Sequence record: MZ911962.1
DNA: 57,025 nt
Source: Escherichia phage PLYYY01
Reading direction: 5' to 3' (one strand)
The notes beneath the pieces were generated by a model that saw nothing but the letters and a program-made list of their open reading frames with translations, ran no database searches and was not told where the DNA came from. Positions 889-40,673 of the stretch are shown here, piece by piece; position 1 is the stretch's first letter; every line of letters begins with the position of its first letter. A program made the translations under genes and the position numbers.

Positions 889-1296
889 ATGACCGACACC
901 AAAAAAGCCAAAGTTGCAGTAGCTAAAAGCTTCCGTGATTTTAAAACTGTGAGCCGGGCAAATGATCCGGCAAACACTAAGCCTATGAATGTGGTTATTC
1001 CTGGTGTAGGCGACACTGGCGAAAAACTCTACATTCGTAGCCGCTACTGCACAGAGTATCGTGACGCAGAATTGAAAGCACAACGTCAACTGTTGGCACT
1101 TATGCAGGGTACAGACGGGGAAGTAACGGATGCTATGAAGGAAGATATCCTTACCCGTTCACTGTGTAATCTTGTAGCAGGTTGGACGTTTGACGAGCCT
1201 CCGACTGTTGACAACGTGTTTGAATTCTTAACGGAGAACCCAACTGTTCGAGAAGACCTTAACGTATTTGCCGCTAAAGATAGTAATTTTTTCTAA
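889..1296 (+). CDS. tail assembly chaperone (lambda G-like)
   Basis: 135-aa ORF with ATG at 889 preceded by AAGGA. Lies between the tail tube and tape-measure genes and ends in the slippery run TTTTTTC followed by TAA. Confidence 0.6.
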   Translation: MTDTKKAKVAVAKSFRDFKTVSRANDPANTKPMNVVIPGVGDTGEKLYIRSRYCTEYRDAELKAQRQLLALMQGTDGEVTDAMKEDILTRSLCNLVAGWTFDEPPTVDNVFEFLTENPTVREDLNVFAAKDSNFF

Positions 1297-13898: not shown

Positions 13899-14169
13899 AG
13901 GTATTGATAAAGTTGTTGAAGGGCTTTCTATTCGCGCTCATGTTATAGCAGATGAAGGTCATGACCAACTTACTATTATGAAATCCGCATTCAGCGATTT
14001 CAAGTCGCTTGGAAACTTAAGCGGGTTAATGACGGTGGTGTCGACCGGAAAATTAACCCAGCAGCAAATCAGTCTAGCTCAACGTATTGCTGTTAAAGTT
14101 ATTGCGGTACTTGGAATGATTGAAGCCGAAAAGCCCAGTTCCAAGCAGGATAACGAAAGCGACCTTTAA
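13885..14169 (+). CDS. hypothetical protein
   Basis: 94-aa ORF overlapping the upstream stop. Confidence 0.4.
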   Translation: MTKNEGIDKVVEGLSIRAHVIADEGHDQLTIMKSAFSDFKSLGNLSGLMTVVSTGKLTQQQISLAQRIAVKVIAVLGMIEAEKPSSKQDNESDL

Positions 14170-30946: not shown

Positions 30947-31867
30947 TTAATCTAAAGCCTGATCAGTTTCGTCGCGGAAATGCATAAAGTTAGCAAAACG
31001 CGGTTTATCTTTAACGCCATGAGGGAAGTGTTTATATGAAATAGTCCGACCTTTAATCTTGTCAGGGTTATTCCAATAATAAATCTTATCCTCTTGCGTT
31101 AATTTACCAGGACTAACGTTGATTGTATTGCCCGTCTTAACGTCTTTACAAACAAGCGTCCCGATCATACCGTTAGGAACTTTATTTTCCTGATGTGAAG
31201 ATCGTGTAGTCCTTCCCAGCTCGTTAACGGTAGCTTCATTAAGATTAGTTTCACCCTCAATAATATCGAGGACAATAGCATCTTCCTGAATAAAGCGTTT
31301 AATACGAAGGTATCCGCCTTCTCGAACTGTACCGCGCCCATGTTTGTAAGGCTTGTTTGGATCACGGATAATAATACCTTCATAACCCATATCAAGCCAG
31401 ATGTTTTCCCAGTAAAGCAGCTCTTGCAAAGACTTAACCACGTACATCGGCACAACTTGCAGATCGAGCAGTTCGCCTTTCGCGTGCTGTGTGGTTATAA
31501 AATCTTTCATCATGTTGTAGCGTGCTTCATAGCCCAGGTCTGCAACACTTTCAGCGCACAGATCAAAGATGTGCCATTTCAGGAACGGTTCGCCTTCAAT
31601 TGTGTTTACCGCACTGGTTGTTTTACGGCACAGGTCGGGATCTGTTTCAACTCCGGCCGCAAGCTCACCGTCATAGCCCATGTACTGGGGACCACTGAAA
31701 ATCGCGCTTGTATGGCGGTTTTTAAACAGCTTTAAACTGCGCCCTACTATTTGCCCATCCGGATTTAAACCGCGTACACCGTCGATTTTAGGCCGTATAC
31801 AGCATGGAAACTTAATCTTTTCTTCAACCGCGTCAGTTGCTAAATGTGGTTTAAATGCCATTTGCAC
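30947..31867 (-). CDS. ATP-dependent DNA ligase
   Basis: 306-aa ORF with adenylation motif I KIDGVR and downstream nucleotidyltransferase motifs. Confidence 0.85.
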   Translation of the reverse strand: MQMAFKPHLATDAVEEKIKFPCCIRPKIDGVRGLNPDGQIVGRSLKLFKNRHTSAIFSGPQYMGYDGELAAGVETDPDLCRKTTSAVNTIEGEPFLKWHIFDLCAESVADLGYEARYNMMKDFITTQHAKGELLDLQVVPMYVVKSLQELLYWENIWLDMGYEGIIIRDPNKPYKHGRGTVREGGYLRIKRFIQEDAIVLDIIEGETNLNEATVNELGRTTRSSHQENKVPNGMIGTLVCKDVKTGNTINVSPGKLTQEDKIYYWNNPDKIKGRTISYKHFPHGVKDKPRFANFMHFRDETDQALD

Positions 31868-32513
31868 CTCTATTCATGAAAGAATGTACGAATTTTAATT
31901 TACGAATACGCTCATTACGTTCTGCAACGGCTTTATCGTCTTCTGAACGAGCAGCCAAACAAGCTTTCTCTTTCATACGGGTATTACGACGTAAATGCCC
32001 GCTACCCTTTTTAGGTCTGTTTTCCTTTTTCTTTGCTTCGGAAATAAGCTCTTTGCATTCCTGCAAACGGATCTTGCTTCTTTCCAATCGCATAGCAGAA
32101 CGCGCACGTTCATCACAAAATCTTTGAGCTTTGCTACGCTGGTCCTGATTACTTGTATGACCTTTAACGTGGCGAAACTCAATAGTAAGGTTATATTTAC
32201 GAAGTTGATCGTTCAACCATTTGAAAGCTGTACCTTCCTGTTCGCTTTTCCAGCTTGCCTCTTTATACACTTTAATAGCTGTTGAACAATCTGTTTGCAC
32301 AATTAAATGATCACCCGATTGAATTAAATTAGCTTTCAATCCTTCCCAAATGACATTACAAATTGCCATTGTTTCAGCTGCATTGTTATCCGGAGCACCG
32401 CGTAATGGACCACCGTTAGCATTATTTCCACGGTTACAAACTACCCATCCACCATATCCCGCGGCTTTTGTATTTGGGCAAAAACTTGCATCAGAAATAA
32501 TTGTTACTCTCAT
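31851..32513 (-). CDS. ribonuclease H
   Basis: 220-aa ORF with RNase H-like N-terminal domain (ISDASF, GYGGW, VQTDCSTA) and a basic C-terminal tail. Confidence 0.65.
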   Translation of the reverse strand: MRVTIISDASFCPNTKAAGYGGWVVCNRGNNANGGPLRGAPDNNAAETMAICNVIWEGLKANLIQSGDHLIVQTDCSTAIKVYKEASWKSEQEGTAFKWLNDQLRKYNLTIEFRHVKGHTSNQDQRSKAQRFCDERARSAMRLERSKIRLQECKELISEAKKKENRPKKGSGHLRRNTRMKEKACLAARSEDDKAVAERNERIRKLKFVHSFMNRGANGI

Positions 32514-34706: not shown

Positions 34707-35174
34707 TTATTGAATTGAACCGCGATCAATTAACCATTGTTTCGCGTGCGCTTTAAAAATAATGCGATAGTCATCAAGACTAATCTCCGCGCGGATGGAA
34801 TCTTTAACTTCGTACCACTGCCACTCACCATTGCTAAAGACAACTGGATTGAGTGGTAGAACAACCTTCCATCCTTTACGTTCTATTTTATACATCAGAA
34901 CTGGATATCTGCCAAGCTCTTTAGCGGATTGAACAGTCTGCTTCCACCATGTGTTCACCTGTGGTGTAGCATGGTTTTTTACTTCAACCGCATGGTGGCA
35001 CGTATTGCTAATGTCGCAACCACCAACCGCACTTTGATTCTGGTTACGCTGAGCAATAGGTTTTTCCGGTAACTGCATCCCCAGCTCTGCGTAGATTTCG
35101 GCATAAATTGCATTAAAGAAATCGCATACTTCCCGCTCACCGCGTTGACCTTTAGCGCGAATATTTACTGCCAT
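34707..35174 (-). CDS. putative PD-(D/E)xK nuclease (Holliday-junction-resolvase-like)
   Basis: Start at internal Met (MAVNIRAKGQRGEREV). E...D...EVK arrangement (GEREV, GGCDIS, VEVKN) resembles Hjc/VRR-NUC-type nucleases. Tentative. Confidence 0.35.
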   Translation of the reverse strand: MAVNIRAKGQRGEREVCDFFNAIYAEIYAELGMQLPEKPIAQRNQNQSAVGGCDISNTCHHAVEVKNHATPQVNTWWKQTVQSAKELGRYPVLMYKIERKGWKVVLPLNPVVFSNGEWQWYEVKDSIRAEISLDDYRIIFKAHAKQWLIDRGSIQ

Positions 35175-35253
35175 GTTTGTCTCCATAACTTTAATGTAAA
35201 ACACTTCATAAAGAATTTTATATTGAAGTTCTGTTGATCTCAAGGAACAAAAA

Positions 35254-35278
35254 AGCCCAGGCATAAGGATTCCTGGGC
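35254..35278 (-). terminator. intrinsic terminator (minus strand)
   Basis: Hairpin GCCCAGG-N11-CCTGGGC followed on the minus strand by TTTTTTG. Confidence 0.5.
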
Positions 35279-35591
35279 TCTCTTGATTGTCGGATAGCTT
35301 ACTTTGTCCGCCGACTTCGTCTATCCTGGCCTACTTGTACAGCCTCGCCAAAGGCTGGTGACGGTTTGGTACATCTGGCGCCGTCGAGTTAAACATTGTT
35401 CACATCGTTCAGTAAGTTGCGGGTTTACCCTGTCCGCTCCAGGAAGCCCAGCGAAAGTAGTTGCTGTAAGGAGGTACAGCTACCGCTTTCAAGGGCTTGA
35501 GTTAAGCATCGTTCACTAAGTTAATGTTGTTAAATTGTTAAACCTCGTTAACTGTGGTTATCTTAAAGGATGCAGTCTTGAATGGCAAGCT
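35265..35591. promoter_or_regulatory. structured non-coding region with GTTAA-containing direct repeats
   Basis: About 330 bp without convincing ORF. Repeated CATCGTTCA(G/C)TAAGTT at 35403-35420 and 35509-35526. Several short hairpins (CAGCCT/AGGCTG, GCTGTA/TACAGC). Clustered GTTAA and one TGTGGTTA. Confidence 0.4.
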
Positions 35592-35906
35592 TCAATTTTG
35601 CGCGGTTCCCTTTGCCGCTTTTGGTGCTAAAGTACCATCATTTAACATCAACTCAAAACCTGTTACTTGATCGGTTGGAACAATAGGGTAATTCATGATA
35701 GCCATGTGGATACGACACCCTCCATCACATTCGTCGATGTATTCACTACCCCAATAGTATAAATGACCATCTCTTCGAATATCCATTGCTGTAGGGAAAT
35801 CTACAAGAATTCTTTTGATTTCTTTTCGTCCTTCTTTATGCAGATTAGTTTCAATACGGATAAGCTCCGCATAAATTGCTTCACAGATAGTATTTACAAT
35901 ACTCAT
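35592..35906 (-). CDS. hypothetical protein
   Basis: 104-aa ORF. Confidence 0.4.
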   Translation of the reverse strand: MSIVNTICEAIYAELIRIETNLHKEGRKEIKRILVDFPTAMDIRRDGHLYYWGSEYIDECDGGCRIHMAIMNYPIVPTDQVTGFELMLNDGTLAPKAAKGTAQN

Positions 35907-36748: not shown

Positions 36749-36973
36749 ATGGTCATGCTGAATAAAGTATATAGCACAATGGGCGCGGATTATAAAGTTG
36801 TACGTCACCCGCGTACTGGCAAATTTGAAGCATATATCCGTCCAATGGGTGAAGGTTGGATGTATTACGGTACTTATGACGACGCTGAGCAAGCTTATGA
36901 AGAAGCGGAAAGTGCGGCGGAAGCATCCGAAATTATGGCAAGGTACGACGTCGATGATTACTATCTCAACTAA
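36749..36973 (+). CDS. hypothetical small acidic protein, lone plus-strand gene in the minus block
   Basis: 74-aa ORF with GGAGG 8 nt before the ATG, followed immediately by hairpin AAAGGGCC-TTTC-GGCCCTTT plus a T-rich run. The antisense ORF 36701-36976 looks non-coding. Confidence 0.5.
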   Translation: MVMLNKVYSTMGADYKVVRHPRTGKFEAYIRPMGEGWMYYGTYDDAEQAYEEAESAAEASEIMARYDVDDYYLN

Positions 36974-36975
36974 CA

Positions 36976-36996
36976 ATAAAGGGCCTTTCGGCCCTT
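36976..36996. terminator. intrinsic terminator, probably bidirectional
   Basis: Perfect 8-bp GC-rich stem AAAGGGCC/GGCCCTTT with tetraloop. T-run on the plus side and A/T-rich on the minus side. Sits at the convergence of the 36749 gene and the primase-helicase stop (37000). Confidence 0.6.
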
Positions 36997-36999
36997 TAT

Positions 37000-39336
37000 T
37001 TATTTGCTTAAGTCTTTGAAAACACTCTCAATTGACTCGTCTATATACCATCCCAACCCCCTGAAATTACGCTTCAATGCATCCTCACGCGTAACCGGAA
37101 CAAGCGCGCCCATGTCTACAAGTTGTTTGATAGTGAGGTCTGTTGCAGTACCTGCTCCCATCCTGTGATTCTTGAATGCTGCTAACCCGTAGGTTCTGCG
37201 TGTGATAGTTGCCTTCGGAATAATACCGTCAACTCGCAGCTCCTTACGATCACATGCAATTTTACCGCCAAGATAATCTTTGCAGACCTGACAGATAGCC
37301 TTCACACGCGTTTCATCATCACCGCCAATAGTACCTTTTTCCCATGCATTGATCATGATGTCCTGCCCATGCGTAACAAAATCTACCGCCCATTGCATGT
37401 GATTTGGCTGAACGACAGGGTTGATCCAGTTTTCCCCTACCGCTAGCAGGGAGGCAAGACGCAGAGCTTTAAGGTGCGCACGGTTCCACGGCTGACGGAT
37501 AGCTTCGTCTTTAGTTGCGTTAATGTGTTCATCACATAACAAGTTAAACTCCCGCTCAATCCTTTCCGCTTCAGGGCTTAACTGGACGGTAACGGTCTGG
37601 AACTTTGCCATTGTCACTAACGTGTGGTTAACGAGATGGCAGACCATGTCCTTTAATTGTTGTGGCATTGTGATTTCAGGATTTTCGTTTGCAGGAACAC
37701 GATCCCCTTCATATTGCACAATGTGGAAACGGGACAAGAAACCGTCTTCCATCATTTCACGTGTTAACGCTTCAAAGAAGGTGTCCGGTGTTGTTTCGCC
37801 CAGTACGCTGAACGCTACCCCTTCCATCGTTTTGGTATTATTAGCCTTATCAGAATATCCAATACCACCAACAACATCCATCGCACCAGATTTTTGATAC
37901 ACATCTGTAATAGTTTGCTTCAAGGTGTAGTTCGCAGTGCCTGGCTGAGCTGTCGCCATACCTTTAATGGTTTTACCAAACTCACCGTTAATATTCACAA
38001 ACGAAGTATGATCCGCAAAACTTTTACGCAAGGCAGGACCGGAAGCATAGTTAGTCATGTCTACAAATTCATGCACTTGCGGTAATTGCTCGCCTACTTG
38101 CTTGCAGATATAGCTGGGCCCGGCGTGAAGCATTTCTTTGCCCACACCTGATCGGGCGATAAGCACAAAGTAACCGTTCAGTCCAGTGTTGGTGATAGTA
38201 TTCCATACCTTACCGCATACACCTGACAAGAATGCTAACGATGCAGTGATTGCAATTTCTTTCACCGGACGCTGCGATGCCTTGTAGATATACTTCGCAA
38301 GCTCACCAGCAAGACCCGGCGGCCATTCAATAGCGGTTGCATCAATGGACGTGCTTTCTGCAACTACTATTTCACCGGACGGGCTGACTGTGGTTACAGG
38401 CATTTCCGTTACCTGCTGCATTGCACTGTGTGCGGCTTGCATACGGGCAGCGTAATCCCGCGCCAGCGCCGCTACGTTTTCCTGGGCAATGCGTTCACGC
38501 TCCATGCGACCGCGACACATACGCAGGCAACGGTCAATATGAACATTGTTCTTATTAGCCTTCTCACGTTTGCCCAGTGCGCTGTAACGGAACAGACGAC
38601 GACATTGCTCATTACTTTCTGTGTAGAATGCATACATAGAAATAAGAGCAAGATCTGCTTCAGACTGGGAAGGGAATCCCATTTCAACCCATTCGCCATT
38701 GAATAGGCGTGCATACTTATCCCCGTTGTCCGCTTCAAGTGCGCGCTGGTGAATAGTTGCATCGTCTTCTACCGGATCTTTTTCTACCAGTTCGATTTCA
38801 TATGTCTTGCGCTGAAGATCAATTTCATTCACAAGCATAGTAAGATAATGATCACGTTCTGCAACTGGTTTGTTATAGACAGGATTGCCCGTGCAGATAA
38901 TAAAACGCTCCTGACTATAAACCTCGACACCATCACGTCGACGACCTTTACCGATATTTCCTCTTAACCACAGGTGAACACCCAAGCCTGAGCGACTTAC
39001 TTCGGTGTAAGTATCGAACGCGGTCATGATCTGTTCGAAGCGGCGCAACTGTTCCGGCGTCGTGTGCTTCTTGGGATCCGGTTCATTGGTTGCGTTCTTC
39101 ACATCCAGGTCGATGCAGGTGAACGGGTCTTGCGCAGTAAGCACGAAGCCAATATAAGGTTTGTTGAAATGAGCGGCGCAACCTTTAGCAGCTTCAAACG
39201 TCATAAGCATATCCGGATCGGTAACGTCCGCCGCCATCAGGCGCCCGATATCGTTATCCCATACAAGAGGCTTTTTATCCGCATCGGCGACCGCCCATTG
39301 TGGGAAAGCTTTAATTTCAGCGGGAAACAATTCCAT
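37000..39336 (-). CDS. DNA primase-helicase (primase-polymerase-like N-terminal domain plus P-loop helicase)
   Basis: 778-aa ORF. N-terminal region with acidic CIDLDVKN motif typical of prim-pol folds. Central/C-terminal P-loop LIARSGVGKE and helicase-like region. Confidence 0.6.
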   Translation of the reverse strand: MELFPAEIKAFPQWAVADADKKPLVWDNDIGRLMAADVTDPDMLMTFEAAKGCAAHFNKPYIGFVLTAQDPFTCIDLDVKNATNEPDPKKHTTPEQLRRFEQIMTAFDTYTEVSRSGLGVHLWLRGNIGKGRRRDGVEVYSQERFIICTGNPVYNKPVAERDHYLTMLVNEIDLQRKTYEIELVEKDPVEDDATIHQRALEADNGDKYARLFNGEWVEMGFPSQSEADLALISMYAFYTESNEQCRRLFRYSALGKREKANKNNVHIDRCLRMCRGRMERERIAQENVAALARDYAARMQAAHSAMQQVTEMPVTTVSPSGEIVVAESTSIDATAIEWPPGLAGELAKYIYKASQRPVKEIAITASLAFLSGVCGKVWNTITNTGLNGYFVLIARSGVGKEMLHAGPSYICKQVGEQLPQVHEFVDMTNYASGPALRKSFADHTSFVNINGEFGKTIKGMATAQPGTANYTLKQTITDVYQKSGAMDVVGGIGYSDKANNTKTMEGVAFSVLGETTPDTFFEALTREMMEDGFLSRFHIVQYEGDRVPANENPEITMPQQLKDMVCHLVNHTLVTMAKFQTVTVQLSPEAERIEREFNLLCDEHINATKDEAIRQPWNRAHLKALRLASLLAVGENWINPVVQPNHMQWAVDFVTHGQDIMINAWEKGTIGGDDETRVKAICQVCKDYLGGKIACDRKELRVDGIIPKATITRRTYGLAAFKNHRMGAGTATDLTIKQLVDMGALVPVTREDALKRNFRGLGWYIDESIESVFKDLSK

Positions 39337-39844: not shown

Positions 39845-40673
39845 ACCTACCTCCTAACAGCACTATACACAATCCATAGTAATGCAGCCACAATTATTCC
39901 ACCTGAAGTTATGATGTGAGCGGATTGTTAATATATAACCACATGTGATGGAAAGTTTTGGGTAGGAATAGTTGGTGCTCCACAGTTTGCGCAATGTGAC
40001 CGAAAGTTTTGTGAGTTTTGCGAAGTTTTGCGAAGTTTTGTGGTGCCACTGTTGCTAAAAACTTTAATAAAAACAATAAGTTGGTGCAGTAAGTTTTTGC
40101 GTTTTGGGGTAAAACGCATTTTTACCCTAACACCCCAAATCCCGACTATTAGTAAAAAACGTATATAAATCAATAGCATAGATACTAAATGAATAGTGAT
40201 TGGAATGGGTAGAAATCCAAATGATGGAAGTGGAATAAATTATTCCTACTTGATAGAATAATGGAATCGGTACTCCAGAGCGCAAAAACCTAAAACTTTC
40301 AGTCAACAGACTAAAAACGGATAGAAACTAAAAGTTAATAAGTAATACCATAAATATATATAAAATAAGGATTTATTAGTAATGTATATAGTACATATTG
40401 GTATTATTTGAATGTTTTTGGGTCATTGTTAAAAAGTCCCAAAACTCACAAAAAGTGAAAGAATACAATTCGTGACAGGATTGTTAATGGAATATGGTGT
40501 ATGGATATACAGTATTATTCCAGATTCCGGAATAATTGGAATAATGGAATAAATTATTGAACTATTGTGATCGGAAGGTATATCAAGCTATAATGCGCTT
40601 AATCGCGGGATATTGGAGGAGGACTTTATTGCGCGGTTAACCGGACCAGTAGGAGGGCTGGCCCGGAAGTAGT
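39845..40673. promoter_or_regulatory. AT-rich intergenic region with iterons (candidate replication origin and/or early promoter cluster)
   Basis: About 830 bp without ORFs >60 aa. Tandem 10-bp units at 40001-40040. Multiple GGAAT(A) repeats, the palindrome GGAATAAATTATTCC (40232-40246) and a second copy of GGAATAAATTATT at 40546-40558. 14-bp inverted repeat TTTTGTGAGTTTTG (about 40007-40020) versus CAAAACTCACAAAA (about 40440-40453). Confidence 0.5.
40001..40040. repeat. tandem array of four ~10-bp direct repeats (consensus CGAAGTTTTG)
   Basis: cgaaagtttt-gtgagttttg-cgaagttttg-cgaagttttg read directly; a fifth copy gaaagttttg at 39951-39960. Confidence 0.8.

Follow-up and report, generated by a model that had tools for sequence, protein, structure and literature searches.

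What does a phage carry in a non-coding gap in the middle of its replication genes? The window, the whole 57,025-nt stretch of DNA analysed here (Escherichia phage PLYYY01), is a Seuratvirus (Queuovirinae) genome. From its letters, the original prediction picked out positions 35265-35591 as a spacer of about 330 bp between minus-strand genes, and offered an internal promoter, an attenuator or a structured RNA as its content. The spacer is longer than this. The intergenic gap measures 417 bp (35175..35591), between a 104-aa gene and a RusA-like nuclease gene that starts at 35174. It lies in a minus-strand module for replication and nucleotide metabolism, in the order primase, small genes, 104-aa gene, gap, RusA-like PDDEXK nuclease and dUTPase, followed later by RNase HI, ligase and Sak4.

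By blastn of phages, the interval and its flanks are 97-99% identical to Escherichia phages Skure, Seurat, CAjan and about 30 others. GenBank records either annotate nothing in the gap or show a hypothetical CDS on the other strand. Two divergent sources of comparison were available among the phages. One is Salmonella phage STP-SP5, the most divergent relative. The other is a lineage that we call type B (VogelGryff, Dru_SM1, OddieOddie and contig L015), in which an HNH homing endonuclease gene is inserted between the terminator described below and RusA.

A predicted transcription unit on the minus strand

Read on the minus strand, the gap presents a sigma-70-type promoter (P1), a non-coding stretch of ~306 nt, an intrinsic terminator and a further promoter (P2). 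These features and the flanking genes are as follows.

35592..35906, minus strand: upstream gene of unknown function, 104 aa, phrog_25787
35588..35560, minus strand: predicted promoter P1, TTGCCA-17 nt-TAAGAT, 9 of 12 matches in a consensus scan
~35553..35248, minus strand: predicted ncRNA of ~306 nt, from promoter, terminator, fold and covariation
35282..35248, minus strand: intrinsic terminator of the RNA, -21.9 kcal/mol, z -5.5, with a U6 run
35243..35215, minus strand: predicted promoter P2, TTGAGA-17-TAAAAT, 10 of 12 matches in a consensus scan
34707..35174, minus strand: downstream gene for a 'RusA-like' nuclease (Pfam PDDEXK_15)

P1 begins 4 nt past the stop codon of the 104-aa gene. 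In STP-SP5 it reads TTGACA-17-TAATAT, with both hexamers nearer to consensus and four substitutions in the spacer. The 5' end of the RNA is inferred to lie at ~35553, 7 nt past the -10 hexamer, and its 3' end is predicted to fall within the U-run of the terminator. The terminator hairpin that had been proposed for the low-coordinate edge of the spacer is indeed there. It spans 35251..35282 with a U-run to 35248, has the form GAGAGCCCAGG-10 nt-CCUGGGCUUUUUUG, and is in functional orientation on the minus strand only. An automatic terminator scan missed it because of the 10-nt loop. The equivalent hairpin in STP-SP5 has a folding energy of -25.2 kcal/mol, and type B phages carry a different hairpin in the same place (-20.9 kcal/mol, followed by U6).

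P2 faces the RusA-like nuclease gene or, in type B phages, the inserted HNH gene. In type B the sequence around P2 has diverged, yet both hexamers and the distance between them are unchanged. All three elements, P1, terminator and P2, are conserved in STP-SP5 as well as in type B, diverged as that lineage is. The idea of an internal promoter fits the sequence twice over, with one conserved predicted sigma-70-like promoter upstream of the RNA and another after the terminator. Transcripts from upstream may also enter the element, in which case a 3'UTR-derived RNA is possible.

A conserved fold supported by compensatory changes

Seventeen distinct homologues, from phage records, three IMG/VR contigs and seven metagenome contigs, were aligned, and a fold of 56 pairs was curated by hand. 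Column shuffles (500) and partners slid by 1 to 3 columns served as controls. Across the 17 homologues 98.6% of the cells in the curated fold are paired. Compensatory double changes occur in 12 of the 56 pairs, compared with 3.9 ± 1.3 in the shuffles, none of which reached 12, and with 1-3 in the slid controls. Covariation across related genomes, which had been suggested as a check of the spacer, was thus found. It comes mostly from three divergent sources, STP-SP5, the type B lineage and an extra module in metagenomic contig L019; phylogenetic power is low because the remaining sequences are 95-99% identical.

The same alignment assigns the RNA to the minus strand, since it contains 75 G-U cells but only 7 A-C cells, and one-sided changes are nearly all to G-U. 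Helices are canonical in 98.6% of cells on the minus strand and in 91.3% on the plus strand. Folding of the single sequence gives z-scores of -3.18 and -1.53, respectively. From 5' to 3', the RNA is divided into the following modules, ahead of the terminator.

35553..35521, minus strand: A/U-rich 5' leader with UUAAC repeats (GC 0.30 over 35498..35553)
35522..35499, minus strand: linear repeat R1, AACUUAGUGAACGAUGCUUAACUC (repeat families D1/D3)
35497..35445, minus strand: hairpin H1, 19 pairs in four tiers, -26.4 kcal/mol, z -6.3
35444..35419, minus strand: H-type pseudoknot with S1 UCCUG/CAGGR, L1 GA, S2 GCGG/CCGC, junction A and L3 UAAAC
35418..35386, minus strand: linear repeat R2, AACUUACUGAACGAUG UGAACAAUG UUUAACUC (repeat search)
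35385..35360, minus strand: hairpin H3, GACGG / CCGUC, with the 16-nt loop CGCCAGAUGUACCAAA, invariant in all sequences
35357..35340, minus strand: hairpin H4, CAGCCUU-UGGC-GAGGCUG
35326..35292, minus strand: hairpin H5 with an inner 3-bp stem, compensatory changes in 5 of 9 pairs

H1 has compensatory double changes in 6 of its 19 pairs, and 99.1% of its cells are paired. Its apical loop, ACCUCCUU(A) at 35475..35467, exactly matches the 16S rRNA 3' end, the anti-Shine-Dalgarno (anti-SD) sequence. While the stem covaries, the loop is invariant in all 17 sequences. The pseudoknot directly follows H1. Four of its nine pairs show compensatory changes (0.9 ± 0.8 in shuffles, 0 of 500 reaching four; 0-2 in slid controls) and 97.5% of cells are paired. 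This covariation has two sources, STP-SP5 and the paralogous extra module of contig L019. One S2 pair is changed in STP-SP5, from C-G to U-A. In the L019 paralogue, S1 has become CCAG/CUGG and S2 CUGU/ACAG, with all three loops identical.

Neither H3 nor H4 lends covariation support, as compensatory variation is absent from both. H3 can yield none because it is invariant. In H4 the changes are one-sided and all to G-U: A-U to G-U in SLUR76 and KS_A3, and G-C to G-U in STP-SP5. By eye, there is complementarity between the H4 loop UUUGGCG and parts of the H3 loop, and a kissing contact between H3 and H4, or an alternative fold, is possible on these sequences. In H5, the type B lineage has replaced both the outer and the inner stem entirely, and GAAG and AAGUA stay invariant. 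In type B phages H5 and the terminator have diverged in sequence and have the same structure, which, on this comparison, is useful independent support for those helices. The internal loop of H5, in which GAA (5' side) and AGUA (3' side) are kept, resembles a loop-E/sarcin-ricin motif by eye.

Conservation was compared with that of the surrounding genes. The whole RNA is 78% identical to that of STP-SP5, with 96% for H3-H4, 91% for H5, 88% for the pseudoknot and 62%, with compensation, for H1. Identity at 4-fold sites is 49% in RusA, 44% in dUTPase, 60% in the 104-aa gene and 75% in the upstream 137-aa gene; the RNA is thus better conserved than the 4-fold sites of three of its four neighbouring genes (44-60%). 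Alleles of the 104-aa protein are only 53-98% identical, whereas the adjoining RNA stays at ~98%, even in contigs where the protein falls to 53-64%. Part of this RNA identity beside a diverged gene may reflect a shared recombination block and not selection.

We regard it as highly probable that the interval is a discrete functional structured RNA. Among the contents first offered for the spacer, the structured RNA is the best supported, by compensatory changes, by G-U pairs on the minus strand and by conservation above synonymous sites. The strand, the unit of promoter, RNA and terminator, the pseudoknot, the anti-SD loop and the origin of the repeats in a module duplication did not figure in the original prediction.

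Repeats reflect an internal module duplication

A repeat search recovered, as family D3, the two GTTAA-containing direct repeats that had been reported about 105 bp apart. They are CATCGTTCAGTAAGTT (35403-35418) and CATCGTTCACTAAGTT (35507-35522), with a spacing of 104 bp and agreement at 15 of the 16 positions. The similarity is longer when read on the minus strand, between AACUUAGUGAACGAUGCUUAACUC of R1 and AACUUACUGAACGAUG(UGAACAAUG)UUUAACUC of R2, and two further repeat families (D1 and D2) also have a spacing of ~105-113 bp. Because of this longer similarity and the shared spacing, we read the repeats as an internal duplication of a ~105-nt module and not as a chance pair. The sequence indicates that the RNA arose in part through duplication of this module. 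One metagenomic relative, contig L019, has a third module (an extra ~100 nt).

The count of short repeats is also unusual. GTTAA occurs six times in 35265-35591, compared with 0.70 expected from its frequency in the window (Poisson P ~9e-5), and no other 327-bp stretch of the 57-kb window exceeds this count; the several copies noticed at the outset are therefore a real excess. They are the UUAAC repeats of the leader read on the opposite strand, and three copies are kept in STP-SP5. On the RNA strand there are 6 UUAAC (0.3 ± 0.6 in shuffles) and 14 AAC triplets (6.2 ± 2.1 in shuffles). The linear repeats themselves vary. R1 in STP-SP5 has lost UUAACUUAG by an 8-nt deletion and keeps only a UGAACGAUG-YUUAA core. 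The tandem copy number of the 9-mer UGAACGAUG in R2 varies between phages from 1 to 3, Dru_SM1 having three. Across the whole window, enrichment of the UGAACGAUG motif is not significant.

The RNA is restricted to Seuratvirus

The RNA is present in all 34 Seuratvirus records found, in seven metagenome contigs and in three IMG/VR contigs, and a covariance model places a single copy in the window. Blastn of phages returned no homologue beyond Seuratvirus. A search with nhmmer and a 309-position covariance model found none in the loci of Nonagvirus JenP1, Craquatrovirus PSTCR7 and Klebsiella phage Kpn2-P2, nor in 12 IMG/VR relatives of RusA. IMG/VR was also scanned with degenerate patterns, including one for the pseudoknot module, and only known contigs were recovered. 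A metagenome scan gave the seven additional Seuratvirus contigs and one chance match, and a scan of GTDB genomes gave chance matches only. In relatives from other genera, different structured spacers, or even a tRNA, stand upstream of RusA; for the PSTCR7 gap just one near-identical relative was at hand for comparison. Searches of the literature gave nothing relevant on an ncRNA or a transcriptome of Seuratvirus or Queuovirinae. We conclude that the RNA is a genus-restricted, phage-encoded structured small RNA, new as far as the searched literature shows.

Tests against coding capacity and known RNA families

The main candidate for a protein in the gap is the ORF at 35304-35519 on the plus strand, of 71 aa with 9 Arg. 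A CDS is annotated here in several records, among them VogelGryff (bas25_0058) and KS_A3 (CDS0061), so a coding reading, of this ORF or of shorter ones, has been adopted before. Many other records have no annotation at this place. The ORF opens with a TTG start codon and shows no visible ribosome-binding site, and alignment with STP-SP5 puts indels of 1, 2, 3 and 8 nt inside it. In STP-SP5, indels or a stop codon break all ORFs in the gap that reach 20 aa, and substitutions track base pairing rather than codon position. The Arg-rich ORF had been judged non-coding from the outset, rightly on this evidence, and the coding reading can for practical purposes be dropped.

Against Rfam 15, the whole window gave no match at gathering thresholds. 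At E≤10, 35100..35700 gave only three chance-level matches, of 10-14 bits against thresholds of 60-80. ARAGORN found no tRNA or tmRNA in the window. No similarity to E. coli sequence was found among 5,426 genomes or 72,556 plasmids in a test for host mimicry.

Racr RNA anti-CRISPRs are solitary CRISPR repeat units. They should resemble the host CRISPR repeat in sequence and secondary structure. A further criterion is a promoter within 250 bp upstream (PMC10651486). Some variants of the RNA carry AGCGG..GGAUAAACC, a motif similar to the 3' portion of the type I-E repeat of E. coli; predicted promoter P1 lies ~130 nt upstream of it and so within that distance. Scored against the K-12 type I-E repeat (taken from NC_000913.3), a CAjan-type variant reaches 19, as do 0.6% of shuffles. 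The window RNA scores 14, compared with 12.9 ± 1.8 in shuffles, 35% of which reach it. The repeat stem CCCCGCG/CGCGGGG is absent from the RNA, and the key A of the repeat-like motif is polymorphic (G/A), a variation explained by pairing within the pseudoknot. We rejected a type I-E repeat mimic.

Seuratvirus phages make 7-deazaguanines, which makes a preQ1 riboswitch an attractive candidate. For preQ1-I, however, no family match was found at E≤10, and where the aptamer model has a conserved C in L2 and a long A-rich tail, the pseudoknot has just one A as L2 and UAAAC as L3. A type III antitoxin RNA (ToxI-like) or pseudo-ToxI was set aside as well: the repeat unit is ~105 nt, present twice, and not a tandem unit of ~34-48 nt, downstream comes a gene for a PDDEXK DNA nuclease, or an HNH gene, in place of an endoRNase toxin gene, and Rfam gives no match. 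A CsrA sponge of the CsrB/RsmZ type, which would have many GGA motifs in hairpin loops, was rejected, with 5 GGA motifs compared with 5.0 ± 1.9 in shuffles. The RfaH ops element (consensus GGCGGTAGnnTG on the non-template strand) has a counterpart by eye in AGCGGTAGCTGT, with 8 contiguous matches inside the H1 stem; it was rejected because variation follows H1 pairing and not the ops consensus, STP-SP5 having ATTGGTAGTTAT. A T4 gene-32-type operator was likewise rejected, as the SSB-like (DUF669) gene is translationally coupled elsewhere, away from the gap.

A candidate riboregulator and its alternatives

We favour the explanation that the gap holds a stand-alone, unannotated minus-strand gene for a structured ncRNA of ~300 nt that serves as a riboregulator, with a probability of roughly 0.6. 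The RNA probably acts in trans. Host RNA polymerase would transcribe it from P1 as leader, H1, pseudoknot, linker, H3, H4 and H5, ending at the Rho-independent terminator, and P2 would restart transcription past the terminator for the next gene. Exposed conserved elements would then base-pair with the Shine-Dalgarno (SD) regions of mRNAs and block their translation. The main pairing element would be the CU-rich anti-SD loop of H1, and the AAC-rich leader and the terminator U-tail may be contact sites for Hfq. This anti-SD mechanism is a tentative part of the explanation, held weakly because no specific target was found and because the 9-nt anti-SD sequence is not selective: it would pair with any strong SD and provides no specificity by itself. 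In a search for antisense targets in the rest of the phage genome the longest complementarity was 11-14 nt, about the chance level. Only one other perfect UAAGGAGGU occurs in the phage genome, and it is an ordinary strong SD at 14167.

The RNA could instead work by binding protein, as a decoy or sponge and possibly as an anti-defence RNA, its conserved loops, pseudoknot, loop-E-like motif and repeated modules titrating a host or phage protein. Such a protein might be a toxin or nuclease from a defence system, or else a factor directed at the ribosome or the 16S 3' end. We consider this unlikely, although several features fit it. The RNA is modular, with two or three modules and 1 to 3 copies of UGAACGAUG; its loops are invariant while its stems covary, and the most conserved block is made up of two hairpin loops. 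The anti-SD loop copies the 16S rRNA 3' end, a base-pairing target in the phage was not found, and some variants weakly resemble part of the type I-E repeat. The resemblance fails for the window's own sequence, however, and lacks the repeat stem. Any partner protein is only hypothetical, no RNA-binding fold having been found in the neighbouring 104-aa protein. GGA motifs are not enriched, so the RNA is not CsrB-like, and the absence of similarity to E. coli genomes and plasmids means that it is not an antitoxin copy. A more specific version, decidedly improbable in our estimate, has the pseudoknot and the UGAACGAUG/UUAAC linker modules (2-3 copies), together with the loop that mimics the 16S 3' end, trapping a host immune nuclease or toxin. 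Its prey would be, for example, an rRNA- or mRNA-cutting effector or an RNA-guided effector.

Two further explanations tie the element to its position. As a cis control of transcription at an operon boundary, it would be a checkpoint that times the expression of RusA and the downstream replication genes, with a folded leader that modifies RNA polymerase or a terminator that is overridden, after the manner of lambda pR'-6S RNA-tR' or HK022 put RNA. A promoter, a ~300-nt untranslated transcript and a terminator directly upstream of genes are what such a control would look like. In relatives from other genera, too, RusA is immediately preceded by a structured spacer and an intrinsic terminator, and in JenP1 and Kpn2-P2 no obvious promoter follows the terminator. 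In Seuratvirus, by contrast, P2 is conserved right after the terminator, even in type B, so read-through is not needed for the downstream genes; this is also why an attenuator is the least favoured of the contents first proposed. The terminator is strong (about -21 to -25 kcal/mol), the conserved structure, with its pseudoknot and invariant 16-nt loops, goes beyond the needs of a simple boundary, and no Q- or N-type antiterminator gene was seen adjoining the gap. We judge this explanation improbable. Still more so, and very remote in our view, is a replication origin or primer RNA, in which the P1 transcript would form an R-loop at the AT-rich UUAAC leader, prime DNA synthesis in the way of a T4 ori or ColE1 RNA II, and be processed by the phage RNase H. 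The element does sit inside the replication module, the phage does encode a genuine RNase HI-domain protein, and the leader has only 30% GC and short repeats. But GC skew does not turn at 35.4 kb; its minimum and a strand switch lie at ~39-42 kb, and an AT-rich repeat region at 40180..40673, next to the skew minimum, is much more origin-like. The interval has 47% GC, above the 44.7% of the genome, only its 56-nt leader being AT-rich. Further, a strong terminator gives a discrete RNA, which a primer does not require, DnaA-box-like sites were not recognized by eye, and UGAACGAUG lacks significant enrichment across the window.

Significance

Virulent E. coli phages are heavily used models, yet they have almost no annotated ncRNAs, and Seuratvirus includes several phages of the BASEL collection. 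The RNA described here is well delimited, measures ~300 nt and shows covariation; its features include a pseudoknot, an anti-Shine-Dalgarno loop, a terminator and a predicted promoter, and it is nearly unchanged across Seuratvirus while the protein of the neighbouring gene varies by up to 47%. Current records either lack it or wrongly show a hypothetical protein on the opposite strand; at the least, annotations of the genus are corrected. Should it turn out to regulate translation or to act as an anti-defence decoy, phage biology would gain a new RNA family; in the latter case this would be a novel class of counter-defence RNA in phages, with no sequence relationship to Racr or pseudo-ToxI. 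It also offers a tractable system for genetic and biochemical work on the RNA.

Comparison with known systems

The pseudoknot belongs with the compact H-type pseudoknots, which include luteovirus frameshift pseudoknots, the T4/T2 gene 32 operator and the preQ1-I aptamer. It shares with them a 5-bp S1, a 2-nt L1, a 4-bp S2, a 1-nt junction and an A-rich 5-nt L3. Unlike frameshift pseudoknots, it lies outside a coding frame and has no slippery site. The gene 32 operator likewise combines a pseudoknot with UUAAA-type repeats, but the RNA here is not the leader of an SSB gene. It differs from preQ1-I in its single-A L2 and in having no Rfam preQ1 match. With the Racr RNAs it has in common that it is a small phage-encoded RNA with its own predicted promoter and, in some variants, a repeat-like motif; it differs in lacking the 7-bp GC stem of the repeat, and the resemblance is not significant for the window sequence.

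Lambda 6S RNA (the pR'-tR' transcript) and HK022 put RNA are, like the element, short promoter-proximal ncRNAs with an intrinsic terminator and phage genes next. Neither a qut/put-like element nor an antiterminator protein was identified at the element, which, unlike these RNAs, has a separate promoter after the terminator and a far more elaborate conserved structure.

Among bacterial small RNAs, E. coli MicL is 308 nt long with a promoter inside cutC, and DapZ is another long sRNA with a promoter at a gene end. The phage RNA resembles them in its sigma-70-type promoter at the 3' end of an upstream ORF, its length of ~300 nt, its terminator U-tail and its A/U-rich single-stranded region. It has no sequence homology to them, is much more structured (a pseudoknot and five hairpins) and is phage-encoded. 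S. aureus RNAIII and RsaE and B. subtilis RoxS block Shine-Dalgarno sites with C/U-rich hairpin loops. These RNAs come from Gram-positive hosts and usually have several UCCC loops, whereas the phage RNA has only one anti-SD-like loop, and its targets are hypothetical. What it shares with them is the geometry: a stable, covarying hairpin that exposes a conserved CU-rich apical loop, ACCUCCUU.

Variation of the predicted RNA among relatives

The 3' part of the RNA differs in one sub-lineage of the related phages. In this sub-lineage an HNH homing endonuclease gene is inserted between the RNA terminator and the RusA-like gene (RusA). The members are as follows.

VogelGryff, L009 1854..2366
Dru_SM1, L010 1863..2375
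OddieOddie, L050
contig L015

In these genomes a divergent counterpart that keeps the structure takes the place of the RNA's 3' domain, which consists of hairpin H5 and the terminator. The exchange begins just after hairpin H4. The diverged domain looks like a co-conversion tract.

The number of internal modules also varies. A Seuratvirus-like metagenome contig (ERZ1026901 NODE-154) contains an additional module of ~100 nt within the RNA (L019 1145..1250). This module has a long hairpin with a GUUCGUU loop, a pseudoknot and a linker repeat, all its own. The RNA module number therefore ranges from 2 to 3, the third module being found in one contig.

Several GenBank genomes have a "hypothetical protein" CDS annotated inside the RNA interval on the opposite strand. 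Two examples are given here.

L009 1542..1703, VogelGryff bas25_0058
L046 192..407, KS_A3 CDS0061

The indel pattern suggests that these annotations are spurious.

Sequences upstream of RusA in other relatives

Nonagvirus-type relatives carry a short structured spacer upstream of RusA, with a common element (ACCCCUUUUC..CUGUCU) followed by an intrinsic terminator.

L012 13657..13842, JenP1
L013 14054..14153, Kpn2-P2

The JenP1 spacer folds with a z of -3.2. In both phages the terminator directly adjoins the RusA ribosome-binding site on its 5' side. Because no promoter between these two elements is obvious on inspection, the spacer and terminator may act as an attenuator.

In Providencia phage PSTCR7, a 638-bp gap (L011 11580..12217) lies upstream of RusA. 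It holds a promoter-like site, a terminator and a 13-mer, TAACTTAGTGAAC, that is also present in repeat R1 of the RNA. This gap, which has a single, near-identical relative, may be a positional analogue of the RNA. An IMG/VR contig whose RusA is 48% identical has a GC-rich, ORF-free stretch of ~780 nt (L035 714..1500) at the RNA's position upstream of RusA. A tRNA-Ser(GCU) is found inside it (1197..1284), and the remainder of the stretch matches no Rfam family.

Other features of the window

The following features lie elsewhere in the window.

31851..32513 (-), "RNase H" gene
34707..35174 (-), gene annotated as a "RusA-like Holliday junction resolvase"
36975..37000, perfect 11-bp palindromic hairpin, AATAAAGGGCC-TTTC-GGCCCTTTATT
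40180..40673, AT-rich stretch of 494 bp

The product of the RNase H gene has a true RNase HI domain (PF00075, E 1.4e-9). The RusA-like product matches PDDEXK_15 in Pfam and no RusA family. The hairpin, which separates the primase gene from a small gene on the plus strand (36749..36973), looks like a bidirectional terminator; its equivalent in the Seurat record is annotated on both strands. The AT-rich stretch is free of ORFs and dense in short repeats of the GGAAT(A)/TGGAATAA type. It coincides with the cumulative GC-skew minimum and the strand switch. This stretch is a likelier candidate than the gap that holds the RNA (35175..35591) for an origin of replication or for a hub of divergent early promoters.
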